Shown piece after piece: positions 43,994-56,273 of a DNA stretch of 64,000 nucleotides (its first letter is position 1; each line of letters begins with the position of its first letter). The position numbers were made by a program, and so were the translations under genes. The notes under the pieces were generated by a model that did no database searches, was not told where the DNA came from, and worked only from the letters and a program-made list of their open reading frames with translations. This DNA is from Usitatibacteraceae bacterium. Lineage in GTDB: Bacteria > Pseudomonadota > Gammaproteobacteria > Burkholderiales > Usitatibacteraceae. The DNA is taken from assembly GCA_044228625.1 (NCBI GenBank), contig JBGAUM010000002.1, positions 21,056 through 85,055 of the forward strand, written 5' to 3'.

Positions 43994-44144
43994 TGGTAAA
44001 ACCCTAGGCCTGGCGCGGCGATTGAGCCGAAAATGGCCCGAAAACCTTGATGCGTCTTGGGTTTTCAAGATTTATCCCCAGATGAAGCCAATGACGTAGA
44101 GCAGTCGGTCATACTTCATCTTGCGGACTTTTCCTCATTCCTTC

Positions 44145-45806
44145 ATGCGCGTTTTTCTTGCCCTTCGCCAGTTGGCGGTTACCCGAGTTCAGTGGATCGC
44201 AATTGCCGCATTGTGGTTGTCGCTGGTTCCCAATCTCGCAACACTGGGCGCCTTTGCAAAGGCGCCGTCTGCGGGAGAGGGACTGCAGTGGCTGGCGTTT
44301 GTGGGCGTGGGATGGGTCTTCGTGTTTGCCATCAGCTTCATCGCCATGGCCTTGGTCGCGGCAATCTTTTGGGGGCGCGCACTCAAACCCGCCACCGCAA
44401 TCCTGCTGCTCGTCGCGTCAGTCCTGAGTTTCTTCACATTGTTTCTGGGCACCCAGTTCGATCGAACCATGGTGCTCAACCTCTTGCAAACGCACCAATC
44501 GGAAGCGCTGGAACTCGTGCATTGGCGGTTGATTGCCTGGGTTGCCTTGACTGGATTGTTGCCGGCGTGGGTCGCGCTACGGATCTCCCTCAAGTCAGAG
44601 CCGAAGTGGTGGCGGCAGTCGGGATTCGTCCTCCTGGGTTGCTTTGTCTTGTTGATCGTCACCTCGGCAGGCGTGTTTGCGCAATATTCGCGCTATGCGT
44701 CGGCGACGCGTAATCGTGCGATCACGTTTGACACCGTCGCGCCATGGAACCTGTTTGCCGCTTCAGTTCATTTGGCAGCGTCGCAGTGGGCGGCGCAAAC
44801 CGTGCGGGCGCCCCGCGGCCTTGACGCCAAGCAGGCCTACCTGCTGAAAAAGCCGCGATTGGTGTTTTTCCTGCTGGGAGAGACGGCCCGCGCGCAAAAC
44901 CATGGGCTCAACGGCTACGAGCGCGACACCACGCCGCGAATGAGGGCCGCAGGCGGCTATTACTTCCCGGACACAGAAAGCTGTGGCACGGCAACCTCGA
45001 TTTCGGTGCCGTGCATTTTTTCAGGCTTCGGGCGTGAAGCCTTCTCGCTCAAGAAAGGGTTGTCGAACGAGACGCTCATCGACGTCCTGCTTCGAGGCGG
45101 CGCTCAAGTTTGGTGGCGCGACAATGATTCGGGTTGCAAGGGCGTTTGCGAAAAGGCCGAGGTCATCGACCTCACCGGATCATCGGACCCACGCTGGTGT
45201 ACGGAAGCCGCAAACTGCTTTGACGAAATTCTTTTTGAAGGACTCGAGGAAAAACTCCGCAAGACCACGCGGGATACCCTCGTGGTGCTGCATCTCAAAG
45301 GCAGCCACGGCCCTGCGTACTACAAGCGTTATCCTGCGCGATTCGAGCAATTCGTCCCGGCCTGCAAGTCAAACGACCTGGCATCTTGTGACAACGCGGC
45401 TCTTCGCAACAGCTACGACAACTCGGTCCTGTATACCGACCACGTGGTGGGTGAATCCATCGAGATGCTCAAGCGCCTCGACAAGCAATTCGCCACGGGG
45501 CTGTTGTACGTGTCCGACCATGGCGAATCGCTGGGAGAAGGGGGGCTGTTCCTGCATGGGCTTCCCTATGCATTGGCGCCCAAGGAGCAGACGCGCGTTC
45601 CCATGTTTGCCTGGGTCTCCGCGGATTTTGTGAAGCTCGAAAACTGGGATGTGCGCTGCATGGCGGAACAGGTGAAGACTCCCCGGTCCCACGACAATGT
45701 CTATTCCACCATTCTTGGCTTGATGGAAATCGAAACTGCGGAATACAAGGTAGAACTGGACCTATTCGAGGCTTGCGACCGCGGAATCAACCATTTGAAA
45801 CGCTAG
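44145..45806 (+). CDS. eptA: lipid A phosphoethanolamine transferase (EptA/PmrC/MCR family)
   Basis: N-terminal 5-TM domain. The sulfatase-type domain has FFLLGETARAQN, the nucleophile context SCGTATSISVPCIFS, HLKGSHGPAYYKRYP, NSYDNSVLYTD and YVSDHGESLGE. Start is ATG 44145, or TTG 44121. Confidence 0.88.
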   Translation: MRVFLALRQLAVTRVQWIAIAALWLSLVPNLATLGAFAKAPSAGEGLQWLAFVGVGWVFVFAISFIAMALVAAIFWGRALKPATAILLLVASVLSFFTLFLGTQFDRTMVLNLLQTHQSEALELVHWRLIAWVALTGLLPAWVALRISLKSEPKWWRQSGFVLLGCFVLLIVTSAGVFAQYSRYASATRNRAITFDTVAPWNLFAASVHLAASQWAAQTVRAPRGLDAKQAYLLKKPRLVFFLLGETARAQNHGLNGYERDTTPRMRAAGGYYFPDTESCGTATSISVPCIFSGFGREAFSLKKGLSNETLIDVLLRGGAQVWWRDNDSGCKGVCEKAEVIDLTGSSDPRWCTEAANCFDEILFEGLEEKLRKTTRDTLVVLHLKGSHGPAYYKRYPARFEQFVPACKSNDLASCDNAALRNSYDNSVLYTDHVVGESIEMLKRLDKQFATGLLYVSDHGESLGEGGLFLHGLPYALAPKEQTRVPMFAWVSADFVKLENWDVRCMAEQVKTPRSHDNVYSTILGLMEIETAEYKVELDLFEACDRGINHLKR

Positions 45807-46440: not shown

Positions 46441-48174
46441 TTACCCGGAGACTTGGAACGCGTTTTTGCGGTGCATGAGCAGCCAACTCGCATTCTCGTC
46501 CAAGGCAAACTTGCCCAACGTGAACAGGCATTGCTCCTCGATGGCTTCGTTGCCTGCATTTCTTTCCAGCGTGGAGCGCGCATTGCGGAACAGCGCGCCC
46601 ATCAGTTCGTAACTCACCGACTGCTCGGCGTAGCCCATCGCTGAGGCATAGCCCTTGATCACGCCGCCCAGCAAGAAGAAGCTGGTTGAAAAGGCCGACG
46701 CCGCGATTTTGATGTGGACCGGCATCAACATCATGCTGGCAACGGCGGCCACGCCCACCAGCAACAACGCGCCCGTCAAGGCGACGTTGGCCAGAAGTTC
46801 GATGCGCCCCGCGGCAATCTTGCACTGCAGAGCCTTACCGGGTCTTTGCGTCGTACCGAGGTAGTACTGCTCCTGGCCGTCCACCCAGTACCGGCCGACA
46901 TCAATCCGGGACGGAACATAGGATGAGGGCGGCTCCCACTGCCAAAGGGGCGCCACCATGAACTGGATGTTTCGCAAGGCCTCGCGGACCCAGCCCACCT
47001 CGGTCTTGACCAGTTGCTGGTACTCCTCTGCAACGCCATGGTGGATGCCGGTGATCTGCCAGAAAAACTGGATGCGCAGACCCTCCGCGATCGCACGGTA
47101 TTCAATATAGCGGTCGCCGATTTGCGAGAGTGGCAGGCGAAAGATCGACAGGTAGAGGCCGTAACCCAATGCCGCCGCTGCACCATAGGCGATGAGCCAC
47201 AACATTTCTTTTTGCGTGGTGAAAGCAGCCTGAAAGAAGGCGCCCAAGACCACGGCAATTGAAACCACACGGACGGCAAGATCCCGCTTGCGTCGAAGCC
47301 GCACCGACACGGAATCCGCGTCGGCAAAGAAGCGAGCCAAGGGGCTGCCGATTTGGCCGAGGCGACCTTGCTCCTCGAGCGGCAGAAGCGACCGAATGCT
47401 GTTGGTATGGTTGGGTTCGTTGTCGATCCGGTTTTTTCGGGCGGCGACATTGAATCGCGAGAACTCCCTTGCCGATTTTCGATACGCCTTGTCCAGCTTT
47501 GACTCGGGAACGCGTTTGGGCTTGTGGTCCGGGTCACTCAGCCGGCGGACTGGAATGTGAATCAGCGAAGTGGTTTCGGGGCTGGAAAGCAAATCCGCGC
47601 TCAATGTAGGCGGACCATGGCGGCACAACTCGACAATCGCCGCGGTTCCATGATCTTCCCCGGGCTTGGCCGGCACGCCATCCCACAACGCAATGACCAG
47701 CTGTGCCTGGCGGACGATGAAAATGTTTTGCTCGCGCATCCGAGATCGATGCACTTCATCGGCCGACGTCGGTTCTTCCGCAGGCGTGGCTGCGGCGGGA
47801 ATCTCGATGACCCGCCAGCACTTGGCCTGATACTCGTCGAAACTGGCGCGCGCTGTGTCGTCAGTCATTGACGCTCTCACGTCTGCGGCCGCGCAAGGCA
47901 AAACGCCGACGACCGCCCAATTTCGGATCATCGCTTCATCCGCGACCAATCGGTCGGTGGGGCTTGTGAGTCCGGTCAACAGGATCAGCGGTGCCTCGCG
48001 CGCCGTTCGCTCCACGCGTCGAAGCGTGTCCCGAACGCGCGCCCGAATCTGGCTTTCGTCGTCCGGGACCAGGTTGTCATGACTGGTCACCGCCACCACC
48101 ATCGGGACCAGGGAGGCGTCCGCAAGCGCCTCGCGCAGGTCCGCCCGAACCCCGCTGATTTTTTCTCTTCGCAT
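46441..48174 (-). CDS. SLOG-like nucleotide-sensor domain fused to a 4-TM (2 x 2TM, SLATT-like) membrane module; candidate effector
   Basis: 577 aa. The N-terminal ~190 aa are Rossmann-like (VVAVTSHDN..., LILLTGLTSPTDRLVADEA, VGVLP, LVIALWDGVPAKPGEDHGTAAIVE). TM pairs are VRVVSIAVVLGAFFQAAF / MLWLIAYGAAAALGYGLYLSIF and LLANVALTGALLLVGVAAVASMM / IKIAASAFSTSFFLLGGVIKGYA. The first pair is followed by an amphipathic YIEYRAIAEGLRIQFFW-type helix. Confidence 0.7.
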   Translation of the reverse strand: MRREKISGVRADLREALADASLVPMVVAVTSHDNLVPDDESQIRARVRDTLRRVERTAREAPLILLTGLTSPTDRLVADEAMIRNWAVVGVLPCAAADVRASMTDDTARASFDEYQAKCWRVIEIPAAATPAEEPTSADEVHRSRMREQNIFIVRQAQLVIALWDGVPAKPGEDHGTAAIVELCRHGPPTLSADLLSSPETTSLIHIPVRRLSDPDHKPKRVPESKLDKAYRKSAREFSRFNVAARKNRIDNEPNHTNSIRSLLPLEEQGRLGQIGSPLARFFADADSVSVRLRRKRDLAVRVVSIAVVLGAFFQAAFTTQKEMLWLIAYGAAAALGYGLYLSIFRLPLSQIGDRYIEYRAIAEGLRIQFFWQITGIHHGVAEEYQQLVKTEVGWVREALRNIQFMVAPLWQWEPPSSYVPSRIDVGRYWVDGQEQYYLGTTQRPGKALQCKIAAGRIELLANVALTGALLLVGVAAVASMMLMPVHIKIAASAFSTSFFLLGGVIKGYASAMGYAEQSVSYELMGALFRNARSTLERNAGNEAIEEQCLFTLGKFALDENASWLLMHRKNAFQVSG

Positions 48175-48349
48175 GGGGCATTATGTGAATTCGCGGGCCG
48201 CAACGCAATGATGGGCAGTGAATGAAGACGCGCGTTGCTTGCAGTGTGGCCCTGCGTTAGGCATAGTAGGTGCGAATCTCTCAAGACTGGCTGACCGAGT
48301 CCGCCCAAATGGCCCGGATCGCGGCAGTCTGAAAGATGAAAGCCAAACG

Positions 48350-50161
48350 ATGTCCTATCAGCCTGTCCAAAAACCAATAGACATTCAGGCAGTAAGACGA
48401 GCCATTTCGGCAGGCGATGCACTCGCGGCAATCGACCTGTTGCGCGACGCGGGTGCCGAACCACAGACGCTTGAGAAGAGGCAGCTATTGGCCATCGCCC
48501 TGCTGCGAGCCGGGGCGCTCAAGGACGCCCAGCGGGCCGTCCGGGAATTGATCGAAGAAGGTCACGATGATGAGGAAACGCTCGGCCTCGCCGCGCGCGA
48601 GGCCAAATCCCGCTACTTGCATGGTGAACCGGACGCGTTGAAGGAAGCCCGCGCCGCGTATTTGCGGGCCTTTCAAGTCACGCGTGGCACCTGGACGGGC
48701 ATCAACGCCGCAACATTGGCGCTGCTGGATGGTGATGAAGACGAAGCAAAGCGACTGGCGACGGAAGTCGGCGCTTTGCTGGCAGCGGCTCCCGCGGGGT
48801 CGCGAGCCACGTATTGGCATGAAGCGACGTCTGGCGAAGTGGCGCTCTTGCTGGGCGATCTCCAGAAGGCCATCGCGCATTATTCGGCGGCGCGCCGCAT
48901 CGAGCCGAGGGCGTACGGTAATCACCGATCGGTGCGCGACAACGCCTTGGCGATTCTTTCCGCCAGGGGATTGCCGTCGTCCACGCTGCAGGGGGTATTT
49001 CCCGGCGTGGGCGTGGCAGCTTTCTCCGGCCACATGGTGGATTCCCCGGGCCGGACACCACCGAGGTTTCCTCCGCATCTGGTGGGGAGCGTGGCCACTT
49101 CAATCGAACAGGCCATCCGCGAGCACGGTGTGGAGATCGGCGTTGCGGGAGCGGCGTGTGGTGGCGACATCCTGTTCCTGGAGGCCATGCAAAGGCTTGG
49201 CAAGGAAACCATCATTGTGCTTCCCCATCCCGTCGAAGCATTTCGAAAAGTGAGCGTGACGGATCCTGCCGGTGAGGCATGGGGCAAGCGATTCGACACC
49301 GTGGTTGCAAGCGCCTCAGAACTGATCGTCCTTGCGCCCCATTTGGGTGAAGACCTGGCCTACCAGTTTCAGGGCGCCGTCATGGCCGGAATCTCCTTGC
49401 AGCGCGCACGCGCGATTAATGGTCATGCGGTGGGGCTGGCACTATGGGATGGACTTCAGGGCGGGGTCGGTGGCACGGGGGCGGTCGTCGAGGAATGGGC
49501 GGCACGCGGCATCGAGGTGGCCTGCTTGCCTTTGGGGGAGGGAAGGGCAACGCGATTGGCACCGATCGAGGCACAGCAACGGCTTGCCACGATGGATCTA
49601 CGTCATGCTGCAGGACAGCGTGTCGTCTCCATCCTCTTTGCGGATGCCGTCGGTTTCAGCAGGCTGGGAGAATTTCAGGTCAAGGCGTTTGTGCGTGAAT
49701 TCTGGGGCCGGGCGGCAAAAATTGTCGACGCCATCCCGGATGGCCAGGTCTTGTCTGCCAATACCTGGGGGGATGGCCTTTTCCTGGTGATCGAGGATGC
49801 GGTCACGGCTGCAGACGCCGCGCTTGAGTTATCGGCCATGGTCACTTCGACGGAATGGAATCGTTTGGGGTTGCCATCCGACACCAACATCCGGATCGCG
49901 GTACATGCCGGGCCAGTGTACGAGGTGGAAGACCCCATCACGAAGCACCGTGGCTTTGCCGGGATGCATATCAGCCGGGCCGCGCGCATTGAGCCGGTCA
50001 CCCCCCCGGGGGAAGTGTATGTCAGCGAAGCATTTGCAGGCCTGTTGGAATTCGACGACCACCAAGACCGGTTCCTGTGTGAGTTCGTCGGGACGGTGCC
50101 GATGGCAAAAGAGTATGGTAGGTTTCGGACCTACCGGCTGGCCTATCGCAAAATGCCTTGA
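48350..50161 (+). CDS. TPR (DUF4071/TRAFs-binding-like) + SLOG-like + class III nucleotidyl cyclase fusion protein; candidate signal generator
   Basis: Start is ATG 48350, or GTG 48218. N-terminal helical repeats carry GINAATLALL and YWHEATSGEVALLLGDLQKAIAHY. The middle region VAAFSGHMVDSPGRTPPRFPP...GVAGAACGGDILFLEAM...IIVLP...GLALWDGLQGGVGGTGAVVEE matches the neighbour's N-terminal domain. The C-terminal cyclase motifs are ILFADAVGFS, NTWGDGLFLV, RIAVHAGPV and ISRAARIE. Confidence 0.75.
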   Translation: MSYQPVQKPIDIQAVRRAISAGDALAAIDLLRDAGAEPQTLEKRQLLAIALLRAGALKDAQRAVRELIEEGHDDEETLGLAAREAKSRYLHGEPDALKEARAAYLRAFQVTRGTWTGINAATLALLDGDEDEAKRLATEVGALLAAAPAGSRATYWHEATSGEVALLLGDLQKAIAHYSAARRIEPRAYGNHRSVRDNALAILSARGLPSSTLQGVFPGVGVAAFSGHMVDSPGRTPPRFPPHLVGSVATSIEQAIREHGVEIGVAGAACGGDILFLEAMQRLGKETIIVLPHPVEAFRKVSVTDPAGEAWGKRFDTVVASASELIVLAPHLGEDLAYQFQGAVMAGISLQRARAINGHAVGLALWDGLQGGVGGTGAVVEEWAARGIEVACLPLGEGRATRLAPIEAQQRLATMDLRHAAGQRVVSILFADAVGFSRLGEFQVKAFVREFWGRAAKIVDAIPDGQVLSANTWGDGLFLVIEDAVTAADAALELSAMVTSTEWNRLGLPSDTNIRIAVHAGPVYEVEDPITKHRGFAGMHISRAARIEPVTPPGEVYVSEAFAGLLEFDDHQDRFLCEFVGTVPMAKEYGRFRTYRLAYRKMP

Positions 50162-50284: not shown

Positions 50285-52030
50285 TCAGCCGCGCGAACGC
50301 GTTCCAATGACAAAGTACATGTCGATGGCTCCCTTGCCCTTGGCATCGACCTTGCCCCGATATTCGCATTCGAATTCTTCCTGCACGAGATCGTAAGTGT
50401 AGGCTGAAATATTGACGCGGCCTGGCTCGCTGGCGCTTTCGAAGCGGGACGCGAGATTGACGGTGTCGCCCCAAATGTCGTACGCATATTTGCGTTTGCC
50501 CACGACGCCGGCGACGACGGGCCCTGAATGTACGCCGATGCGGATACCCCATTTGAATGGCGACCTCTTGTTGCGTTCGGCCACGTATTCCGCAATGCCC
50601 AGCGCGGCGCGTACGCATCGCAGCGCGTGATCCCCACAAGGCTTGGGCAGCCCGGCGGCGGCCATGTACGCATCGCCGATGGTCTTGATTTTCTCGACGC
50701 CACAACGATCCGTGATGTCATCGAATGCGGCAAACAACTCGTTGAGCTCCGCCACCATGCGGTCGGCCGGAATGCTCGCGACGGCCTGCGTGAAACCGGA
50801 AAAATCCGTGAAAAGGATGGTGACCGATTCAAAGCGGGCCGGCTTTGACTCGCCGGTGCTGGACAATTCGTTTGCCACATCCGCGGGAAGGATGCTGTGC
50901 AGCAGATCCTGGGTACGCGCCTGCTCGGCCTTCAACTGGGCTGTGCGTTCCTCCACTTTTTGTTCAAGTACGGCGTAGGACTGTTTGAGGTGACTGCCCA
51001 TCGCATTGAACTGCCCCGCCAATTCTTCGAGTTCGTCGCCCGTCTGAATGTCAATTTTGCGTTCAAAGTTGCCCCCCCCGATTTCCTTGGCACCCTCCGC
51101 AAGGACCCCGAGCGGTCTCACCAGGCGCTTGGCTAGAAAAAAGCTCGCCGCAACGGAGATCACCAGGCCTGCTGCGAGCAATACCAATGCCCGAATGATC
51201 ACCGGCGTCGTGGCCTCCAGCGCCTCTGCGCGAGGGGTATCCACGAAGACCCGCCACCCCAGAAAGTCGATCGGAGAGTGCGCAGAGATCACAGGCTCCT
51301 GGGCAATGTTGACGCCCATTGAGGACGGCTGCCCTTTCAGCGCCCCGGACACCTGCGGCAGGGCCATAAGATTGGTCTTTTTCAGCACCAATGAAATATC
51401 GGGATGGGCGATCAACGTTCCTGAACCATCCACGACGTAGGTGACGCCCGCTTTTCCGGACCTGATCTTGGACACCACGTTCCAAACCAGTTTCAGGTTC
51501 ACTTCGGCTAACACCGCACCGCCGCCCAATGCGGGCTTGATAATGGTCATGTAAGGTTCGGTCCCTTTCAGGAAATACACCGGGCCAAAACTGGTCTTGC
51601 CTGCCTTGGCAGACGCGTACAACGGATTCGTCGATTGATCGGTACTGGAGCCGCTCGAATCCATGGCCAGCCGTGAGACTCTTGCGCGCTCAATGGCGCT
51701 CTTGTCGATCCATGCGGCTTCGGTAACGGCGGGTACCTGCCGCATGAGCTTGAGCAGCGCGATGCGCCGTTGCTCGATCTCATCACCACTGCCAAACGTG
51801 ACGGGCAATGCCGCCCAGCCCATCTGGTGCTCGATATCAACCACAAACTGCTCAATGCGAATCGCCGCAGAAACCGATTTTTCTGCCTGCAACTCTGTGA
51901 GCTGCGCCTCGGTCTCCTTGACCGAGAAATAGGCGCCGATTCCGCCGCTGAGCATCAGCAAACCGGCCACCAACGACACAATCAATGTGGCGTACTTGGG
52001 GAACAGCCGCCAACGGCGCATTAGCTGCAT
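50285..52030 (-). CDS. membrane adenylate/guanylate cyclase with a periplasmic Cache-like sensor and HAMP
   Basis: TM1 YATLIVSLVAGLLMLSGGIGAYF, a ~270-aa periplasmic region (GVTYVVDGSGTLIAHPD), TM2, then HAMP (RPLGVLAEGAKEIGGGNF...DELEELAGQFN). The class III cyclase part has ILFTDFSGFT, IKTIGDAYMAA, RIGVHSGPVVAGVVG and WGDTVNLASRFE. Start is ATG 52030, or 52021, or TTG 52066. Confidence 0.85.
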   Translation of the reverse strand: MQLMRRWRLFPKYATLIVSLVAGLLMLSGGIGAYFSVKETEAQLTELQAEKSVSAAIRIEQFVVDIEHQMGWAALPVTFGSGDEIEQRRIALLKLMRQVPAVTEAAWIDKSAIERARVSRLAMDSSGSSTDQSTNPLYASAKAGKTSFGPVYFLKGTEPYMTIIKPALGGGAVLAEVNLKLVWNVVSKIRSGKAGVTYVVDGSGTLIAHPDISLVLKKTNLMALPQVSGALKGQPSSMGVNIAQEPVISAHSPIDFLGWRVFVDTPRAEALEATTPVIIRALVLLAAGLVISVAASFFLAKRLVRPLGVLAEGAKEIGGGNFERKIDIQTGDELEELAGQFNAMGSHLKQSYAVLEQKVEERTAQLKAEQARTQDLLHSILPADVANELSSTGESKPARFESVTILFTDFSGFTQAVASIPADRMVAELNELFAAFDDITDRCGVEKIKTIGDAYMAAAGLPKPCGDHALRCVRAALGIAEYVAERNKRSPFKWGIRIGVHSGPVVAGVVGKRKYAYDIWGDTVNLASRFESASEPGRVNISAYTYDLVQEEFECEYRGKVDAKGKGAIDMYFVIGTRSRG

Positions 52031-52131
52031 GGCCCACGCAGTTGCATCACGGATTTCATTGCGCAAGTCTAAGCGATGATTCGTAAGGCGGGGCCCACCG
52101 ACATGCGCTCCCTTGACGGATACTTGCAGCG

Positions 52132-52798: not shown

Positions 52799-55768
52799 AT
52801 GCGTTCCCGCTGCTTTCATATTTTCCTGAGCGCAATCTTGTGGGGCCTATGCACGGTTGGCGCTTCGAACCCGGCCGATGCGGAGACCCCAAAAACCGCA
52901 CCACCGTCAAGCGTAGCGGACGCTGGCGATCGTGCGGGATCCGCTGTGTCTCAATTGAGGATCGACCGGTGGCAGACGGAACAAGGCTTGCCCTTGAACA
53001 CCGTGCAAACTGTGTTTCAAAGTTCTAGCGGGCATCTGTGGGTAGGTACCGCCGGCGGGTTGGCGCGTTTTGACGGCGTGCGATTTACGACATTCGAGGA
53101 AGCTGCGTTACCGGGCATCTTCTCAAAGCCGATTTTTGGAATCTTTGAAGATTCGGCCGGATCCATTTGGTTTGGGCACCATCAAGGGGCGGTGCGGTGG
53201 CGAGAGGGGCGCTTTGAAACCGTATTTGATGCAGACATCACGGATCGAAAGCGAGTTTGGTCCTTTGTCGAGCATCCGAAGGGCACTGTGTGGGCGGCGA
53301 CGGAAAATGGCTTGGTCCGGTGGGAAACCGGAAAGGGCGTCACCAAAATCTACAAAACTTCCGATGGTCTTCCTGTCAATCGCTTGCGTTCGTTGGCCCT
53401 GGATCGCGATGGCACGCTCTGGATTGGGACCACCGGCGGCGGTTTGGTGTCGTTCGGCGGGAGCCAGTTTGTCGTCAAGAGTCCTGCCAACGGTTTTCCC
53501 CATGCGGAAGTCCGGCATGTCTTGGCAAGTGCGGAAGGCGGCGTATGGGCGGCCACCGCAGGCGGCGGATTGGTTCACGTGCTCCGGGACAAGCAACGGG
53601 TCTTCGGATTGAAGGAAGGATTGCCGACCAATCAACTGACTCACCTGGCCAACGCACCGGATGGCACGCTTTGGATTGGCACTTGGGGATCGGGCATCGT
53701 CCGATACCGCGATGGACGATTCGATACGCTGGCCTCGGCAGGCGGGCTGGCGGGCGACCAGATCTGGTGTCTGCTCGCCGACCGGGAGAACAGCGTTTGG
53801 GTCGGCACATGGTCGGGCGGGCTTAACCGGTTGAGGTCGCGACCGTTTGTGCTGGTCGGCAAGCCGGAGGGCCTGACGCACGACAATGTGCGTTCCGTGT
53901 TGCATCGCAAAGACGGCACCGTTTGGGTGTCGGCGTCCGGCGGCGGTATCAGCCGGCTCGAAAATGACGGCGTGAAGCCTTTGGGCCTCCGCGACGGGCT
54001 CCCGACACTGGAAACGTCGGCGCTATACGAGGATACCGATGGGTCGATGTGGATCGGCACGTACACCGAGGGCGCTGTTCGATGGTTCAGCGGCCGCACC
54101 CAACGCTTCGGCGCCGGTCAAGGATTGCCCAGCGTGGACGTTCGGTCGTTCCTTCGCGATTCCCGCGGTTACTTGTGGGTGGGTACCAAGGCGGGCGTTG
54201 CGCGTTGGAATGGCAAGGCGTTTGAAACCATCAAGGGTCCCAATGCGCCGACCGAAGGTGTCGCGGCCATGCTGGAAGACAGGCAAAAGCGCGTCTGGTT
54301 TGGCACCACGGGCGGCGGGTTGTACAAGTTTGAGGCAGGAGAATTTTCGGTGTTGACCCGAAAGGAAGGGTTGTCTTCCAATTGGATCATTTCGCTTTTT
54401 GAGGACAGTCGCGGCGCGTTGTGGGCGGGAACCGGGGGGGAAGGCATCATCCGCATCAAGGCCGATCGCGTCAGCGTGATTCGCCCTGCGGATGGAATCT
54501 GGGACGGCGTTGTTCAAACTCTCCTTCCCGACCGTTTCGGAAACCTCTGGGTGACCTGCAACCGCGGGTTCTACAAGGTCTCGCAAGCCGAACTTGACGC
54601 GTTCGCGGATGGCCGGGCAAGCAAGGTGAACTCGACCGGATTCGGACCCGGAGATGCGCTTCGCAGCACGACATTTGCAGGAGGTCTGCAACCTGCGGGC
54701 AGCATCGACGCCCGTGGACGCTTGTGGCTTGCAAGCTTCAGCGGCCTCGTCATTGTGGACCCAGCGCGCCTGCCCGGCGAAGGGCGCGCGCCTGTCGCAG
54801 CTGTTGAGGAAGCCCTTGTCAATGGCCATGCGGCAAATTGGCGCAGAGGCGTCGTTGTGCCAGCAGGCCCGCAATCGGTCTCCATCCGGTACTTCACCAC
54901 CTCCTTGAAGGAATCGGAGCGCACGCAGTTTCGCTATCGCATGGAGGGGTTGCCCGGTGACTGGATCATCGCGGGAAAGAACCGCGAAGCAACTTTTCCC
55001 TCGCTTCCTTATGGAAACTACAGGTTCCTGGTGTCCGCCTCACTCGACGGCAAGAACTGGGGTGAAATGGCGGAGCTGCCTGTGACCGTCGAGCCTTTCT
55101 TTTGGCAAACGCGGTGGTTTCTGGCGATGTCCCTTGCGGGGTTGGTGGCGCTCGCATTGGGAGTCTTCAAATGGCGCACGCAGCAATTGCGTTCACGCCA
55201 AGCGGAGCTTGAGAGATTGGTGGCAGAGAAGACCGAGGCATTGCGGCAGGCCAACGAACACCTTTCGCGCTTGTCCATGGCCGATCCGCTGACCGGTCTG
55301 GCGAACCGTCGCCGACTCGAGGAGGTGCTGCGAGATGAATGGCGCCGCGCGGAGCGATCGGGGTCCTCTCTGGCCATCCTGATGGCGGATATTGATGCAT
55401 TCAAGGCCTACAACGACTCATTGGGTCATTTGGCGGGAGATCGTTGCCTTTCCGACGTTGCCCATACGTTGGCCGAGTGCGCGAGCCGGCCCGGAGATTT
55501 CATTGCCCGATACGGCGGGGAGGAGTTTCTGGTGGTGCTGCCCGGGCTGGATGTCGAGCAGGCCCTGGGATTGGCCGAGCGCATGCGCCAAGCCTGCGAG
55601 TGGCGCCAGATGCCTCATCCCGCCAATCCTGCGGCTCCCGTGGTGACCATCAGCGTGGGCGCAGCGGCTACGATTCCGCTCGCAGGGGAAACCGTGGAAT
55701 CATTGATCCACCAGGCGGACGCTGCGCTGTATCGCGCCAAGCAGGAAGGGCGAAACCGTTGCCGCTGA
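52799..55768 (+). CDS. sensor diguanylate cyclase: signal peptide, two-component-regulator beta-propeller repeats, Y_Y_Y-like domain, TM, GGDEF
   Basis: 989 aa with many repeats of the type D..G.lWiGT.gGl.r. The TM is FLAMSLAGLVALALGVF, followed by a coiled coil. The GGDEF domain has DPLTGLANRR, DIDAFKAYND and RYGGEEF. Confidence 0.88.
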   Translation: MRSRCFHIFLSAILWGLCTVGASNPADAETPKTAPPSSVADAGDRAGSAVSQLRIDRWQTEQGLPLNTVQTVFQSSSGHLWVGTAGGLARFDGVRFTTFEEAALPGIFSKPIFGIFEDSAGSIWFGHHQGAVRWREGRFETVFDADITDRKRVWSFVEHPKGTVWAATENGLVRWETGKGVTKIYKTSDGLPVNRLRSLALDRDGTLWIGTTGGGLVSFGGSQFVVKSPANGFPHAEVRHVLASAEGGVWAATAGGGLVHVLRDKQRVFGLKEGLPTNQLTHLANAPDGTLWIGTWGSGIVRYRDGRFDTLASAGGLAGDQIWCLLADRENSVWVGTWSGGLNRLRSRPFVLVGKPEGLTHDNVRSVLHRKDGTVWVSASGGGISRLENDGVKPLGLRDGLPTLETSALYEDTDGSMWIGTYTEGAVRWFSGRTQRFGAGQGLPSVDVRSFLRDSRGYLWVGTKAGVARWNGKAFETIKGPNAPTEGVAAMLEDRQKRVWFGTTGGGLYKFEAGEFSVLTRKEGLSSNWIISLFEDSRGALWAGTGGEGIIRIKADRVSVIRPADGIWDGVVQTLLPDRFGNLWVTCNRGFYKVSQAELDAFADGRASKVNSTGFGPGDALRSTTFAGGLQPAGSIDARGRLWLASFSGLVIVDPARLPGEGRAPVAAVEEALVNGHAANWRRGVVVPAGPQSVSIRYFTTSLKESERTQFRYRMEGLPGDWIIAGKNREATFPSLPYGNYRFLVSASLDGKNWGEMAELPVTVEPFFWQTRWFLAMSLAGLVALALGVFKWRTQQLRSRQAELERLVAEKTEALRQANEHLSRLSMADPLTGLANRRRLEEVLRDEWRRAERSGSSLAILMADIDAFKAYNDSLGHLAGDRCLSDVAHTLAECASRPGDFIARYGGEEFLVVLPGLDVEQALGLAERMRQACEWRQMPHPANPAAPVVTISVGAAATIPLAGETVESLIHQADAALYRAKQEGRNRCR

Positions 55769-55804: not shown

Positions 55805-56161
55805 CTAGAGAAAAGCCGACACGCCGCGCAACCGCATCGCCATGGAACGCATGATATGCAACGCAAAGTCAGGATTGGCGGCCGTCAATTCGCGGAACTT
55901 GACGTCATCAATGGCGATGAAATTGCAGTCTTCGCGTGCCACAAGGGTCGCCGAACGCGGCGAATCATCAATAATGGCCATTTCGCCCACGATGTCGCCC
56001 GGTTGCAAAGTCTCGACCACTTTGCCCCGGATCAGGACATCCGCGCGTCCAGCCATCAGCACCAGCATGGATCGGCCGGGGTCTCCTTCCGAAAAAACCG
56101 TGTGGCCGACGGGAACGGAAAGGATGTCGGTCTGGTGCATCAGGAATTCTTCGAGTTTCAT
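55805..56161 (-). CDS. stand-alone cyclic-nucleotide-binding domain protein
   Basis: ATG at 56161 preceded by GGGAG. About 118 aa with FSEGDPGRSMLVLMAGRADV...LQPGDIVGEMAIIDDSPRSATLVA, the FGE..l....pRsAt cNMP cassette. No HTH follows. Confidence 0.8.
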   Translation of the reverse strand: MKLEEFLMHQTDILSVPVGHTVFSEGDPGRSMLVLMAGRADVLIRGKVVETLQPGDIVGEMAIIDDSPRSATLVAREDCNFIAIDDVKFRELTAANPDFALHIMRSMAMRLRGVSAFL

Positions 56162-56273
56162 TCTGGACTCCCGGATCGAATGACCAAGCATAGCGCAATT
56201 TGGCGCGTGGCCGAGTGCCCTCGCGGTTTAGAATGCGCTTCTTTTCCTGCCGGACGCCACAAGCCGAAGCCAG

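Follow-up and report, generated by a model that had tools for sequence, protein, structure and literature searches.

The gene at positions 46441-48174 (minus strand) of a 64,000-nucleotide stretch of DNA from a Usitatibacteraceae bacterium (contig JBGAUM010000002.1; the whole stretch is called the window below) seems fairly likely to encode the membrane effector of a nucleotide-second-messenger conflict system of the anti-invader or abortive-infection type. Its 577-residue product carries a predicted SLOG-fold head, followed by a helical stalk and two transmembrane (TM) hairpins that resemble two different SLATT families. By analogy with known systems, the family to which it belongs probably damages membranes as the effector of bacterial immune systems based on TIR proteins or cyclases. 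The observations behind this reading comprise the domain anatomy of the protein, its affinities to SLATT and SLOG families, the size of the family, and the linkage of the family to TIR/STAND genes and to the gene of a SLOG-like cyclase.

Overall architecture and topology

The open reading frame (ORF) is intact and starts with ATG. Its coordinates were exactly those given beforehand, and all the peptides and ORF coordinates quoted in an initial annotation of the window were present and exact. The gene is divided into the following parts, with the evidence for each in parentheses.

47533..48120, minus strand: predicted cytoplasmic SLOG-fold head of the DprA/YpsA/LOG type, residues 19-214 (AlphaFold2, Foldseek, Pfam matches of homologues)
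47287..47532, minus strand: predicted basic helical stalk from the head to the membrane, residues 215-296 (charge, AlphaFold2 helices)
47140..47286, minus strand: first TM hairpin, DUF4231/SLATT_3-type, residues 297-345, with TM1 at 297-317 and TM2 at 324-345 (hydropathy, profiles)
46939..47139, minus strand: inter-hairpin juxtamembrane helices, predicted cytoplasmic, residues 346-412 (conservation, AlphaFold2 helices H351-374, H380-387, and H393-406)
46813..46938, minus strand: lead-in to the second module, W430-x3-Q434-x2-Y and a basic stretch before TM3, residues 413-454 (conservation)
46651..46812, minus strand: second TM hairpin, SLATT_1-type, residues 455-508, with TM3 at 455-478 and TM4 at 486-508 (hydropathy, profile matches of relatives)
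46441..46650, minus strand: C-terminal helices, predicted cytoplasmic, and stop codon, residues 509-577 (motif conservation, AlphaFold2 helices H514-537 and H542-571)

Four hydrophobic segments were found in the protein by a Kyte-Doolittle scan with a 19-residue window (approximately residues 297-317, 324-345, 455-478, and 486-508), with peaks of 2.03, 1.58, 2.29, and 1.65 from TM1 to TM4. The hydropathy averaged by column over an alignment of 142 homologues recovered the same four segments (residues 296-323, 321-348, 458-488, and 485-511). They are also matched by the long helices H275-320, H323-345, H446-480, and H485-512 of the AlphaFold2 model, which was built on 13 homologues (mean predicted local distance difference test score (pLDDT) of 77.6 and predicted template modelling score (pTM) of 0.79). 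The two successive TM hairpins noticed in the initial annotation are borne out by all three approaches. TM4 is enriched in Ala, Ser, and Gly.

The loops within the hairpins are short: six residues between TM1 and TM2 and seven residues between TM3 and TM4. Lys and Arg residues are concentrated on the outer flanks of the hairpins, the predicted cytoplasmic side. In view of these two features, the simplest topology is N-in, in which the N-terminus, the inter-hairpin region of about 110 residues, and the C-terminus would all be cytoplasmic.

The region between the head and TM1 had been described as a basic linker of about 100 residues. It is indeed basic, with 21 Lys and Arg residues against 11 Asp and Glu residues in residues 210-296; however, in the AlphaFold2 model the region is helical with pLDDT values of 84-89, so that it is considered to be a helical stalk running into TM1 rather than a loose linker. 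The helices H225-250, H252-262, and H265-270 lead into H275-320. The stalk ends in the conserved A286-D287 motif directly before TM1; in the 142 relatives, from which all conservation values given here are taken, N242 is conserved in 97% and D287 in 95%.

The inter-hairpin region contains the best-conserved motif of the family, located after the first hairpin (consensus DYRALAEGLRVQFFW). In the juxtamembrane region of the window protein, which also holds W395, this part is represented by residues 353-372, DRYIEYRAIAEGLRIQFFW. R360 and E364 are conserved in 100% of the relatives, A363, R367, and W395 in 99%, W372 in 96%, and Q369 in 89%. The initial annotation took the segment after the first hairpin to be amphipathic; the Eisenberg moment of residues 351-372, at 0.04, does not support this, yet the segment is the most conserved motif of all. 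The suggestion that an element reminiscent of a Q..YY signature precedes the second pair fared better: the element is real, and both W430 and Q434 are invariant (100%), a conservation which in the aligned sequences is far above chance expectation. The C-terminal region has the invariant motif LGK-x-AL-x-EN-xx-W-xxx-HR, in which E560 and W564 are conserved in 100%, G554 and L558 in 96%, and N561 and R569 in 94%. The invariant polar juxtamembrane residues R360, E364, R367, Q369, W430, Q434, E560, and N561 are the obvious targets for mutagenesis.

SLATT-type membrane modules

The first module of the window protein matched Pfam DUF4231 at residues 287-369 (E value of 0.0019; 19.0 bits against a cut-off of 24.7) and NCBIfam SLATT_3 at residues 280-365 (E value of 0.015; 15.3 bits against a cut-off of 45). 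DUF4231 is a member of the Pfam SLATT clan. Sixteen of 18 homologues matched DUF4231, with a best E value of 1.4e-8, and the homologue at locus L093 passed the cut-off (27.0 bits against 24.7). The second module of the window protein had no profile match of its own in these scans. SLATT_1 matched the second module in 4 of 10 diverse relatives, below the cut-off and in the correct register; the W-x3-Q-x2-Y lead-in of relatives aligns to positions 6-47 of the SLATT_1 profile.

The decisive link to the SLATT families, drawn from profile comparison, comes from headless relatives in which both modules are present. A headless protein of 365 residues (L052:8780-9877, plus strand), encoded next to the family member of that locus, matched DUF4231 with its first module (E value of 2.3e-4) and SLATT_1 with its second module at 29.5 bits, above the cut-off of 26.3. 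The profile of the second module of the family matched the second module of this protein with an independent E value of 3e-10. In two headless proteins of 312 residues (L087:4904-5842 and L092:159-1097, both on the minus strand), the second module matched SLATT_1 at E values of 2e-4 and 4e-4, respectively, and the module-2 profile matched these second modules with independent E values of approximately 1e-6 to 2e-6. In addition, a weak Foldseek match to a viral SLATT protein was obtained (probability of 0.87; E value of 1.1). That the four-TM module is also found headless, or behind another type of N-terminal domain as described below, is the modularity expected of an effector.

The initial annotation proposed a tandem duplication of a two-TM unit. 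The two hairpins stand as described above, but they do not derive from a recent duplication of one hairpin, which was ruled out by the weak similarity of the modules. An hhalign comparison of the first and second modules was collinear but weak with 142 sequences (E value of 1.3e-3; probability of 19%), and with 18 sequences it detected no similarity (E value of 0.18). The module-1 profile cross-matched second modules weakly in one clade (independent E values of 0.004-0.006). Because both modules match SLATT-family profiles and such cross-matches occur, a common ancient origin of the two modules seems plausible. The hairpins are therefore best read, as far as the profiles indicate, as an old tandem in which a DUF4231-like module precedes a SLATT_1-like one, the two SLATT-type modules having already diverged from each other. 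No existing profile spans the whole tandem unit.

A known transporter fold was also considered for the membrane half and was rejected. Nothing transporter-like was found for the C-terminal half in the Pfam or Protein Data Bank (PDB) searches: a sequence profile search of the whole PDB gave no match, and a Foldseek search of the PDB gave nothing credible for the membrane half, only low-probability alignments to ABC-transporter, GPCR, and MFS structures. Weak Pfam matches that occurred here and there in only one to five members (MFS_1, Amastin, DUF2207_C, and others) were put down to hydrophobicity and regarded as noise.

Size, spread, and selection of the family

An exhaustive hidden Markov model search of 1.84 billion cluster representatives gave 10,151 family members at E values of 1e-3 or below and 2,646 at 1e-30 or below. 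The top 150 matches all had E values of 1e-100 or below and were nearly all full length (550-660 residues). A word-indexed search gave 18 relatives. At least 582 species-representative genomes, from many bacterial phyla and some archaea, contain a confirmed relative; cultured carriers include Stutzerimonas, Pseudomonas, Rhodanobacter, and Natronincola strains. Few of the relatives are named in the sources, as "hypothetical protein" or "DUF4231 domain-containing protein". Two hairpins in one polypeptide had initially been regarded as a peculiarity. Since thousands of members share the same architecture, a SLOG head with two hairpins is the norm of a large unnamed family, not a one-off. Only two partial matches were found among 2.9 million viral contigs, so the family is not phage-borne.

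Against the orthologue of 83% identity, the ratio of nonsynonymous to synonymous substitution rates (dN/dS) by the Nei-Gojobori method was 0.078 for the whole gene, 0.09 for the head, 0.04 for the first module, and 0.03 for the second, where dS values of 1.0-2.4 are near saturation and make the ratios rough. With low values in all regions, the gene is under purifying selection, which clearly argues against a decaying pseudogene. The membrane half is the most constrained region.

A word-indexed search with the C-terminal module gave 26 proteins, none with a named alternative head. In one clade (L037:1091-3010 on the plus strand, P0303, P0304, P0306, and P0307), the same membrane modules follow another N-terminal domain of about 300 residues, which has no match to the SLOG-head profile and no Pfam domain recorded in the sources. 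With its LLWIGP motif, this domain may be a very divergent SLOG domain; alternatively, it may represent a new kind of sensor head. In two other loci (L028:2063-3847 and L049:7007-8722), the family gene is split and the second membrane module is a separate ORF; these splits could be frameshifts, assembly errors, or genuinely split genes.

SLOG-fold head

The head of the AlphaFold2 model consists of alternating beta and alpha elements from E24-30 to E202-207. The first 210 residues matched DprA (4ljk and 3uqz), the LOG-like protein TM1055 (1rcu), and the DprA-like protein ShosA with a Foldseek probability of 1.0; the TM-score on the target was 0.39-0.48 for the two DprA structures. The head also matched phage DprA-like, YspA, and DUF2493 SLOG proteins (probability of 1.0; TM-score on the target of up to 0.72). 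The window protein itself gave no SLOG match in the Pfam scan. Of 18 homologue heads, nine matched DNA_processg_A (best E value of 5e-5) and six matched YAcAr; these were the only Pfam matches of the relatives' heads, and no dedicated SLOG-subfamily model of Pfam matched. On the basis of the structure matches of the model and the Pfam matches of the relatives, the head is considered to have the SLOG fold, in line with the SLOG-like head of the initial annotation.

Four head motifs are near-invariant in the family: GxTGHRD, LAEGAD, ALWDG, and GT. The first two correspond to the glycine-rich and acidic loops, located behind strands 1 and 3, by which SLOG domains contact the nucleotide, and the family in general has them. 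In the window protein the head is degenerate, with AVTSHDNL where the family has GVTGHRDL and LTSPTDRL where the family has LAEGADRL. G31, R33, and G72, which are conserved in 93-99% of the relatives, are replaced; ALWDG and GT are retained. The orthologue of 83% identity (P0002, locus L001) has AVTGHSDL and LSNDAERL, and the L093 homologue (39% identity; L093:3329-4993) has GVSGPRRV and LADGFEQL. These three proteins are the strongest outliers, and the remaining sequences checked keep the motifs.

The near-invariance of GxTGHRD, LAEGAD, and ALWDG..GT is what active sites often show, and some SLOG clades, notably the LOG family, are catalytic (PMC9503650). The head might accordingly have enzymatic activity, for example as a nucleotide N-glycosidase similar to LOG or in the processing of NAD or ADP-ribose (ADPR), with the four helices as a mere membrane anchor. 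This is very improbable. The membrane modules and juxtamembrane helices are more constrained than the head, and the four-TM module persists in headless proteins. Furthermore, the window copy is still under selection although the motifs that could serve catalysis or binding are gone from it, and the profile matches of the hairpins are to effector (SLATT) families, not to generic anchors.

Divergent cyclase partner and the four-gene cassette

The key partner, which was not mentioned in the initial annotation, is a gene transcribed divergently from the effector gene and encoding a TPR-S/SLOG-like/cyclase protein.

48350..50161, plus strand: partner cyclase gene, 603 residues (Pfam, AlphaFold2, Foldseek)
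~48425-48721, plus strand: TPR-S region of the partner (Pfam, models)
~49010-49558, plus strand: SLOG-like middle domain of the partner (Pfam, models)
~49622-50134, plus strand: class III nucleotidyl cyclase domain of the partner (Pfam, models)
48175..48349, no strand: divergent intergenic region between the effector and cyclase genes (read from the sequence)

The partner matched TPR-S (E value of 9e-17), MAP3K_TRAF_bd, and Guanylate_cyc in Pfam. In its AlphaFold2 model (pLDDT of 92; pTM of 0.92), the cyclase fold matched CyaC, Rv1900c, and others at a probability of 1.0. The metal-binding residues D432 and D475 are invariant in the partner cyclase family, which has at least 663 members. The middle domain has the motifs FSGH, ACGGD, and ALWDG..GGTG. 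It was matched by the effector-head profile with an E value of 1.8e-4 and matched two effector heads in phmmer searches with E values of approximately 7e-5, and its strands and helices are in the same order as those of the effector head in the AlphaFold2 models. From these motifs, matches, and the common order of secondary structure, the middle domain is SLOG-like.

The mechanically called ORF of the cyclase begins with GTG at 48218. The ATG at 48350 (MSYQPVQK...) gives the 603-residue form found in the database with 100% identity and coverage, and it is the likely start. The intergenic region is 175 nucleotides long with this start and 43 nucleotides with the GTG. The 48175-48349 region probably holds both promoters, and no sigma-70 consensus site was found in it.

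A gene for the four-TM module adjoins a homologue of the partner cyclase gene in the window and in L001, L055, L087, L092, and L093. The pairing recurs in Burkholderiales, in one Blastocatellia genome, and in several metagenome contigs, with effectors that are either SLOG-headed or headless; the headless genes of L087 and L092 are paired divergently with the TPR-S/SLOG/cyclase gene, as in the window. Ten loci of the cyclase family, including the window, were inspected.

Window: four-TM gene SLOG-headed with degenerate motifs; TIR, SIR2, and STAND genes, none
L001: four-TM gene SLOG-headed with degenerate motifs; SIR2_2/TIR_2 and nSTAND1-WD40
L055 (Blastocatellia): four-TM gene SLOG-headed with canonical motifs; TIR gene within three genes
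L093: four-TM gene SLOG-headed with degenerate motifs; SIR2_2/TIR_2 and nSTAND1-WD40
L087: four-TM gene headless, 312 residues; SIR2_2/TIR_2, then a gene interrupted by the contig end
L092: four-TM gene headless, 312 residues; SIR2_2/TIR_2 and nSTAND1-WD40
L091: no adjacent four-TM gene; TIR_2 protein, then a gene interrupted by the contig end
L088: no adjacent four-TM gene; SAM-TIR-NPHP3_N-TPR protein directly upstream
L089: no adjacent four-TM gene; no conflict-type neighbours
L090: no adjacent four-TM gene; divergent DUF4062-TPR protein

The complete form is a cassette of four genes (four-TM effector, TPR-S/SLOG/cyclase, SIR2-TIR, and nSTAND1-WD40). Since the last two genes were not found in the window, the window contains a reduced two-gene version of this cassette. 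The position occupied by the SIR2-TIR and nSTAND1-WD40 genes in L001 is taken in the window by an unrelated Cache-HAMP cyclase gene on the other strand.

The effectors linked to the cassette have a head that is degenerate (window, P0002, and L093) or absent (L087 and L092). Canonical motifs are kept in L055, where the available sequence ends about 1.7 kb upstream of the cyclase gene, too short a stretch to show whether a full cassette is present. From this correlation it is suspected that, in this clade, sensing has moved from the effector to the cyclase protein.

The loss of the SIR2-TIR and STAND genes together with the eroded head motifs could also mean that the effector gene of the window is a functionless decaying remnant. 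The window cassette is incomplete relative to L001, L092, and L093, and split copies exist elsewhere (L028 and L049). This explanation is nevertheless quite unlikely. The ORF of 577 codons is intact, dN/dS is 0.078 (0.09 in the head and 0.03-0.04 in the membrane modules, with dS near saturation), and the partner cyclase retains its invariant catalytic Asp residues. In addition, degenerate heads are also present in the complete cassettes of L001 and L093, and the loss of the motifs thus preceded, and was not tied to, the reduction of the cassette.

Gene neighbourhoods of relatives

In a neighbourhood survey, ORFs were called in 82 related loci and the three genes on each side of the family member were clustered. 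The largest neighbour cluster (38 proteins from 37 loci) contained TIR_2 in 21 and DUF4062 in 7 of its proteins, which were mostly fused to STAND NTPases and TPR repeats. By an iterative search seeded with TIR domains, a TIR gene was found within three genes in 29 of the 82 loci; with so many short contigs, this is a minimum number. TIR genes are rare in bacteria, and by chance well under one such neighbour would be expected in 82 loci. Within the close subfamily, which has an identity of 39% or more, a TIR gene is present within two genes wherever the sequence suffices (L001, L002/L003, L004/L005, the P0008 locus, and L093). A tight operon of four genes, in the order unknown, SLOG-4TM, TIR, and AAA ATPase, is found in the isolates Stutzerimonas stutzeri 95A6 and Pseudomonas fluvialis ASS-1. 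Across phyla, TIR, DUF4062, and STAND-TPR genes recur beside relatives. The effector role put forward in the initial annotation fits these neighbourhoods with their TIR, STAND-TPR, SIR2-TIR, and cyclase genes.

Other components were also observed. A conserved protein of 222-236 residues without a Pfam match is encoded by a gene overlapping the start of the SLOG-4TM gene (L016:6321-6986, L025:6279-6986, and L009:6312-7001) in TIR-linked operons of Pseudomonadaceae and Methylococcaceae. At the equivalent position in L004, a gene product of 215 residues has a weak CAP12/PCTIR TIR-like match. Proteins with an RyR domain are encoded directly upstream of SLOG-4TM genes in six loci (L020, L031, L044, L056, L061, and L084), and an RyR domain is fused into some of the TPR-S/SLOG/cyclase proteins (P0222, P0226, P0230, and others). 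This recurrence hints at a further shared component.

Surroundings in the window and a housekeeping alternative

The effector/cyclase pair of the window lies beside the following genes.

50285-52066, minus strand: dCache-HAMP class III cyclase (PADLOC PycC-model matches, E value of 4e-19)
52799-55768, plus strand: Reg_prop/Y_Y_Y GGDEF protein
55805-56191, minus strand: stand-alone cyclic nucleoside monophosphate (cNMP)-binding protein, 128 residues
45861..46343, minus strand: small downstream ORF, 160 residues, with a signal-peptide-like N-terminus (read from the sequence)

The flanking genes are housekeeping genes (EptA, FAD oxidase, and TctC). The EptA/MCR-like phosphoethanolamine-lipid A transferase encoded at 44121-45806 (plus strand) scored 500.9 bits with NF028537 against a cut-off of 500 and remained below the cut-offs of every named MCR family; it is probably an intrinsic EptA.

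The initial annotation suggested that the small secreted-protein gene might be co-transcribed with the effector gene. The ORF exists, its start is signal-peptide-like, and it lies 97 nucleotides downstream; no terminator-like site was predicted in this spacer, and co-transcription is possible. However, the ORF is conserved only in the orthologous locus L001 of 83% identity. It had no match in Pfam, NCBIfam, or PADLOC and is in no recurrent neighbour cluster (three or more loci) among about 80 related loci. Its membership in the system is doubtful.

These surroundings bear on another explanation, in which the protein would be a housekeeping nucleotide-gated ion channel or a membrane-anchored signalling protein that serves ordinary cNMP signalling together with the cyclase encoded next to it and has no role in defence. 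It is plausible for this locus, which has no TIR or STAND genes and in which the pair has the Cache-HAMP cyclase, GGDEF, and cNMP-binding protein genes listed above as neighbours and is flanked by housekeeping genes. Some homologues of the cyclase are in non-conflict contexts, such as L089, and relatives are nearly absent from the viral contigs (two matches). TRPM channels, which the full model matched weakly with Foldseek probabilities of 0.18-0.54, offer a precedent for a SLOG-like head on a channel in physiological gating. On the other hand, the recurrence of TIR, DUF4062, and STAND-TPR genes beside relatives across phyla, and of SIR2-TIR and nSTAND1-WD40 genes adjoining the same gene pair, argues against a housekeeping function. 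The variable partners and the exchange or loss of heads are typical features of conflict systems; the hairpins are of SLATT type; and the effector has no cNMP-binding domain (no cNMP_binding match). Taken together, the housekeeping explanation is considered to be rather unlikely.

Proposed mechanism

For the conflict-system effector favoured here, the following sequence of events is proposed. An upstream sensor, which might be a STAND-WD40 protein or TPR-S repeats, would detect an invader, and a TIR/SIR2 enzyme, a cyclase, or both would then produce a nucleotide signal. This signal would be bound by a SLOG domain, in most family members that of the effector's own head. In the clade with the cyclase cassette, the canonical SLOG-like domain on the cyclase protein would probably sense the signal instead, and either the product of the cyclase or direct contact would activate the effector. 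The change would pass through the stalk and the juxtamembrane helices, the hairpins would rearrange or oligomerize, the inner membrane would leak, and the cell would stop. By analogy with SLATT and SLOG systems, nucleotide sensing by the SLOG domain may thus drive the hairpins to breach or depolarize the membrane.

Several points weigh against this reading. About two thirds of the related loci have no TIR gene within three genes, although many contigs are short, and no TIR, SIR2, or nSTAND1 gene was found in the 64-kb window by tblastn with the proteins of relatives. The PADLOC models (PADLOC 2.0) match neither the effector nor its cyclase partner, and the locus lies among ordinary second-messenger genes, not in an obvious defence island. 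All the Pfam and NCBIfam matches of the window protein are below the curated cut-offs. Because its SLOG motifs are degenerate, ligand binding by the window head seems doubtful. Finally, pore formation is suggested here by analogy with SLATT proteins alone.

A more elaborate version of the proposal is a two-tier relay. In this relay, nSTAND1-WD40 would activate SIR2-TIR, the canonical SLOG-like domain of the cyclase protein would read an ADPR-type product, and the cyclase, either by amplifying the signal in the form of a cyclic nucleotide or by docking directly onto the tandem-SLATT effector, would cause this effector to open. If this were true, the loss or decay of the effector head would mean that sensing had been handed to the cyclase. 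The relay as a whole is distinctly unlikely; the make-up of the cassette suggests that a single system may link signalling by NAD-derived molecules to signalling by cyclic nucleotides.

If the favoured reading is correct, a family found in hundreds of bacterial and archaeal species would provide a common type of membrane effector in immunity based on TIR proteins and cyclases. Present models of domains or defence systems do not include a chain with two different SLATT modules. Stutzerimonas stutzeri 95A6 and Pseudomonas fluvialis ASS-1, with their four-gene operons, are cultivable test systems, and the family offers a natural series (canonical head, degenerate head, no head) that bears on the coupling between a nucleotide signal and damage to the membrane.

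Comparison with known systems

SLOG-plus-SLATT effectors are already known as a predicted kind, to which the very name SLATT refers. In the literature searched, no description of the tandem DUF4231/SLATT_1 unit, the family, or the cassette was found; the search did not cover Burroughs et al. 2015, where a prior mention is possible.

In type I Thoeris, the SLOG domain of ThsA binds 3'cADPR (cyclic ADPR) made by a TIR protein, which switches the effector on (bioRxiv 10.64898/2025.12.03.692087). ThsA (SIR2-SLOG) is similar to the present protein in that a SLOG domain is fused to an effector encoded near TIR genes. The two differ in that the effector part here is a four-TM membrane module, not a SIR2 NADase, and that the head is of the DprA/YpsA type, with degenerate motifs in the window protein. 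Unlike Thoeris, the window has no TIR gene, whereas one is present near the relatives in 29 of 82 loci. Type III Thoeris, which has a SLOG effector, was rejected as a counterpart: the hypothesis for that effector is action via a nuclease domain (NucS), and its description does not include a membrane location.

Type II Thoeris (TM helices and Macro) and Pycsar PycTM have in common with the present system a nucleotide-binding domain fused to TM helices, a TIR or cyclase signal, and arrest. As in Pycsar, a class III cyclase gene adjoins the effector gene. The sensor fold is different, SLOG in place of the Macro or CAP-type cNMP-binding domain, and the partner cyclase has no PADLOC PycC match and carries the additional TPR-S and SLOG-like domains.

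TRPM channels, such as TRPM2, also have an N-terminal SLOG-like domain on a transmembrane ion-conducting module, and in TRPM2 this N-terminal domain is the site at which ADP-ribose gates the channel. The Foldseek matches of the full-length model to TRPM8, TRPM5, and TRPM2 mentioned above had root-mean-square deviations of approximately 30 Å. The six-helix tetrameric channel core of TRPM is unrelated to SLATT hairpins, and there is no evidence of common descent of the membrane parts.

The conflict systems with STAND and TIR proteins described by Kaur et al. (2020, 2021) are NTP-dependent and threshold-regulated (PMC7159879, PMC8195603). The effector-cyclase pair, which in relatives stands beside SIR2_2/TIR_2 and nSTAND1-WD40, is similar to them. 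The four-gene cassette itself, of which the window has two genes, was not found there: the text of the two papers does not mention TPR-S, and that of the 2021 paper mentions neither SLOG nor SLATT.

The closest counterparts in the membrane part are the two-TM SLATT effectors (SLATT_1-6, DUF4231, ThsH, and the SLATT-5 partner of UG17/DRT10). For SLATT proteins, pore formation upon activation by nucleotides has been predicted (PMC7159879, PMC9503650), and ThsH is the effector of type VII Thoeris, which signals by cADPR (bioRxiv 10.64898/2025.12.03.692087). The present protein shares with them two-TM hairpins whose outer loops are very short, preceded by a conserved lead-in motif on the cytoplasmic side and followed by a helix, and the genomic linkage to TIR and nucleotide-signal enzymes. 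Its family has profile matches to DUF4231, SLATT_3, and SLATT_1, with the scores of the window protein itself below every curated cut-off. It differs from them in having two different modules in one chain, with about 110 conserved cytoplasmic residues between them and a conserved helical cap at the C-terminus.

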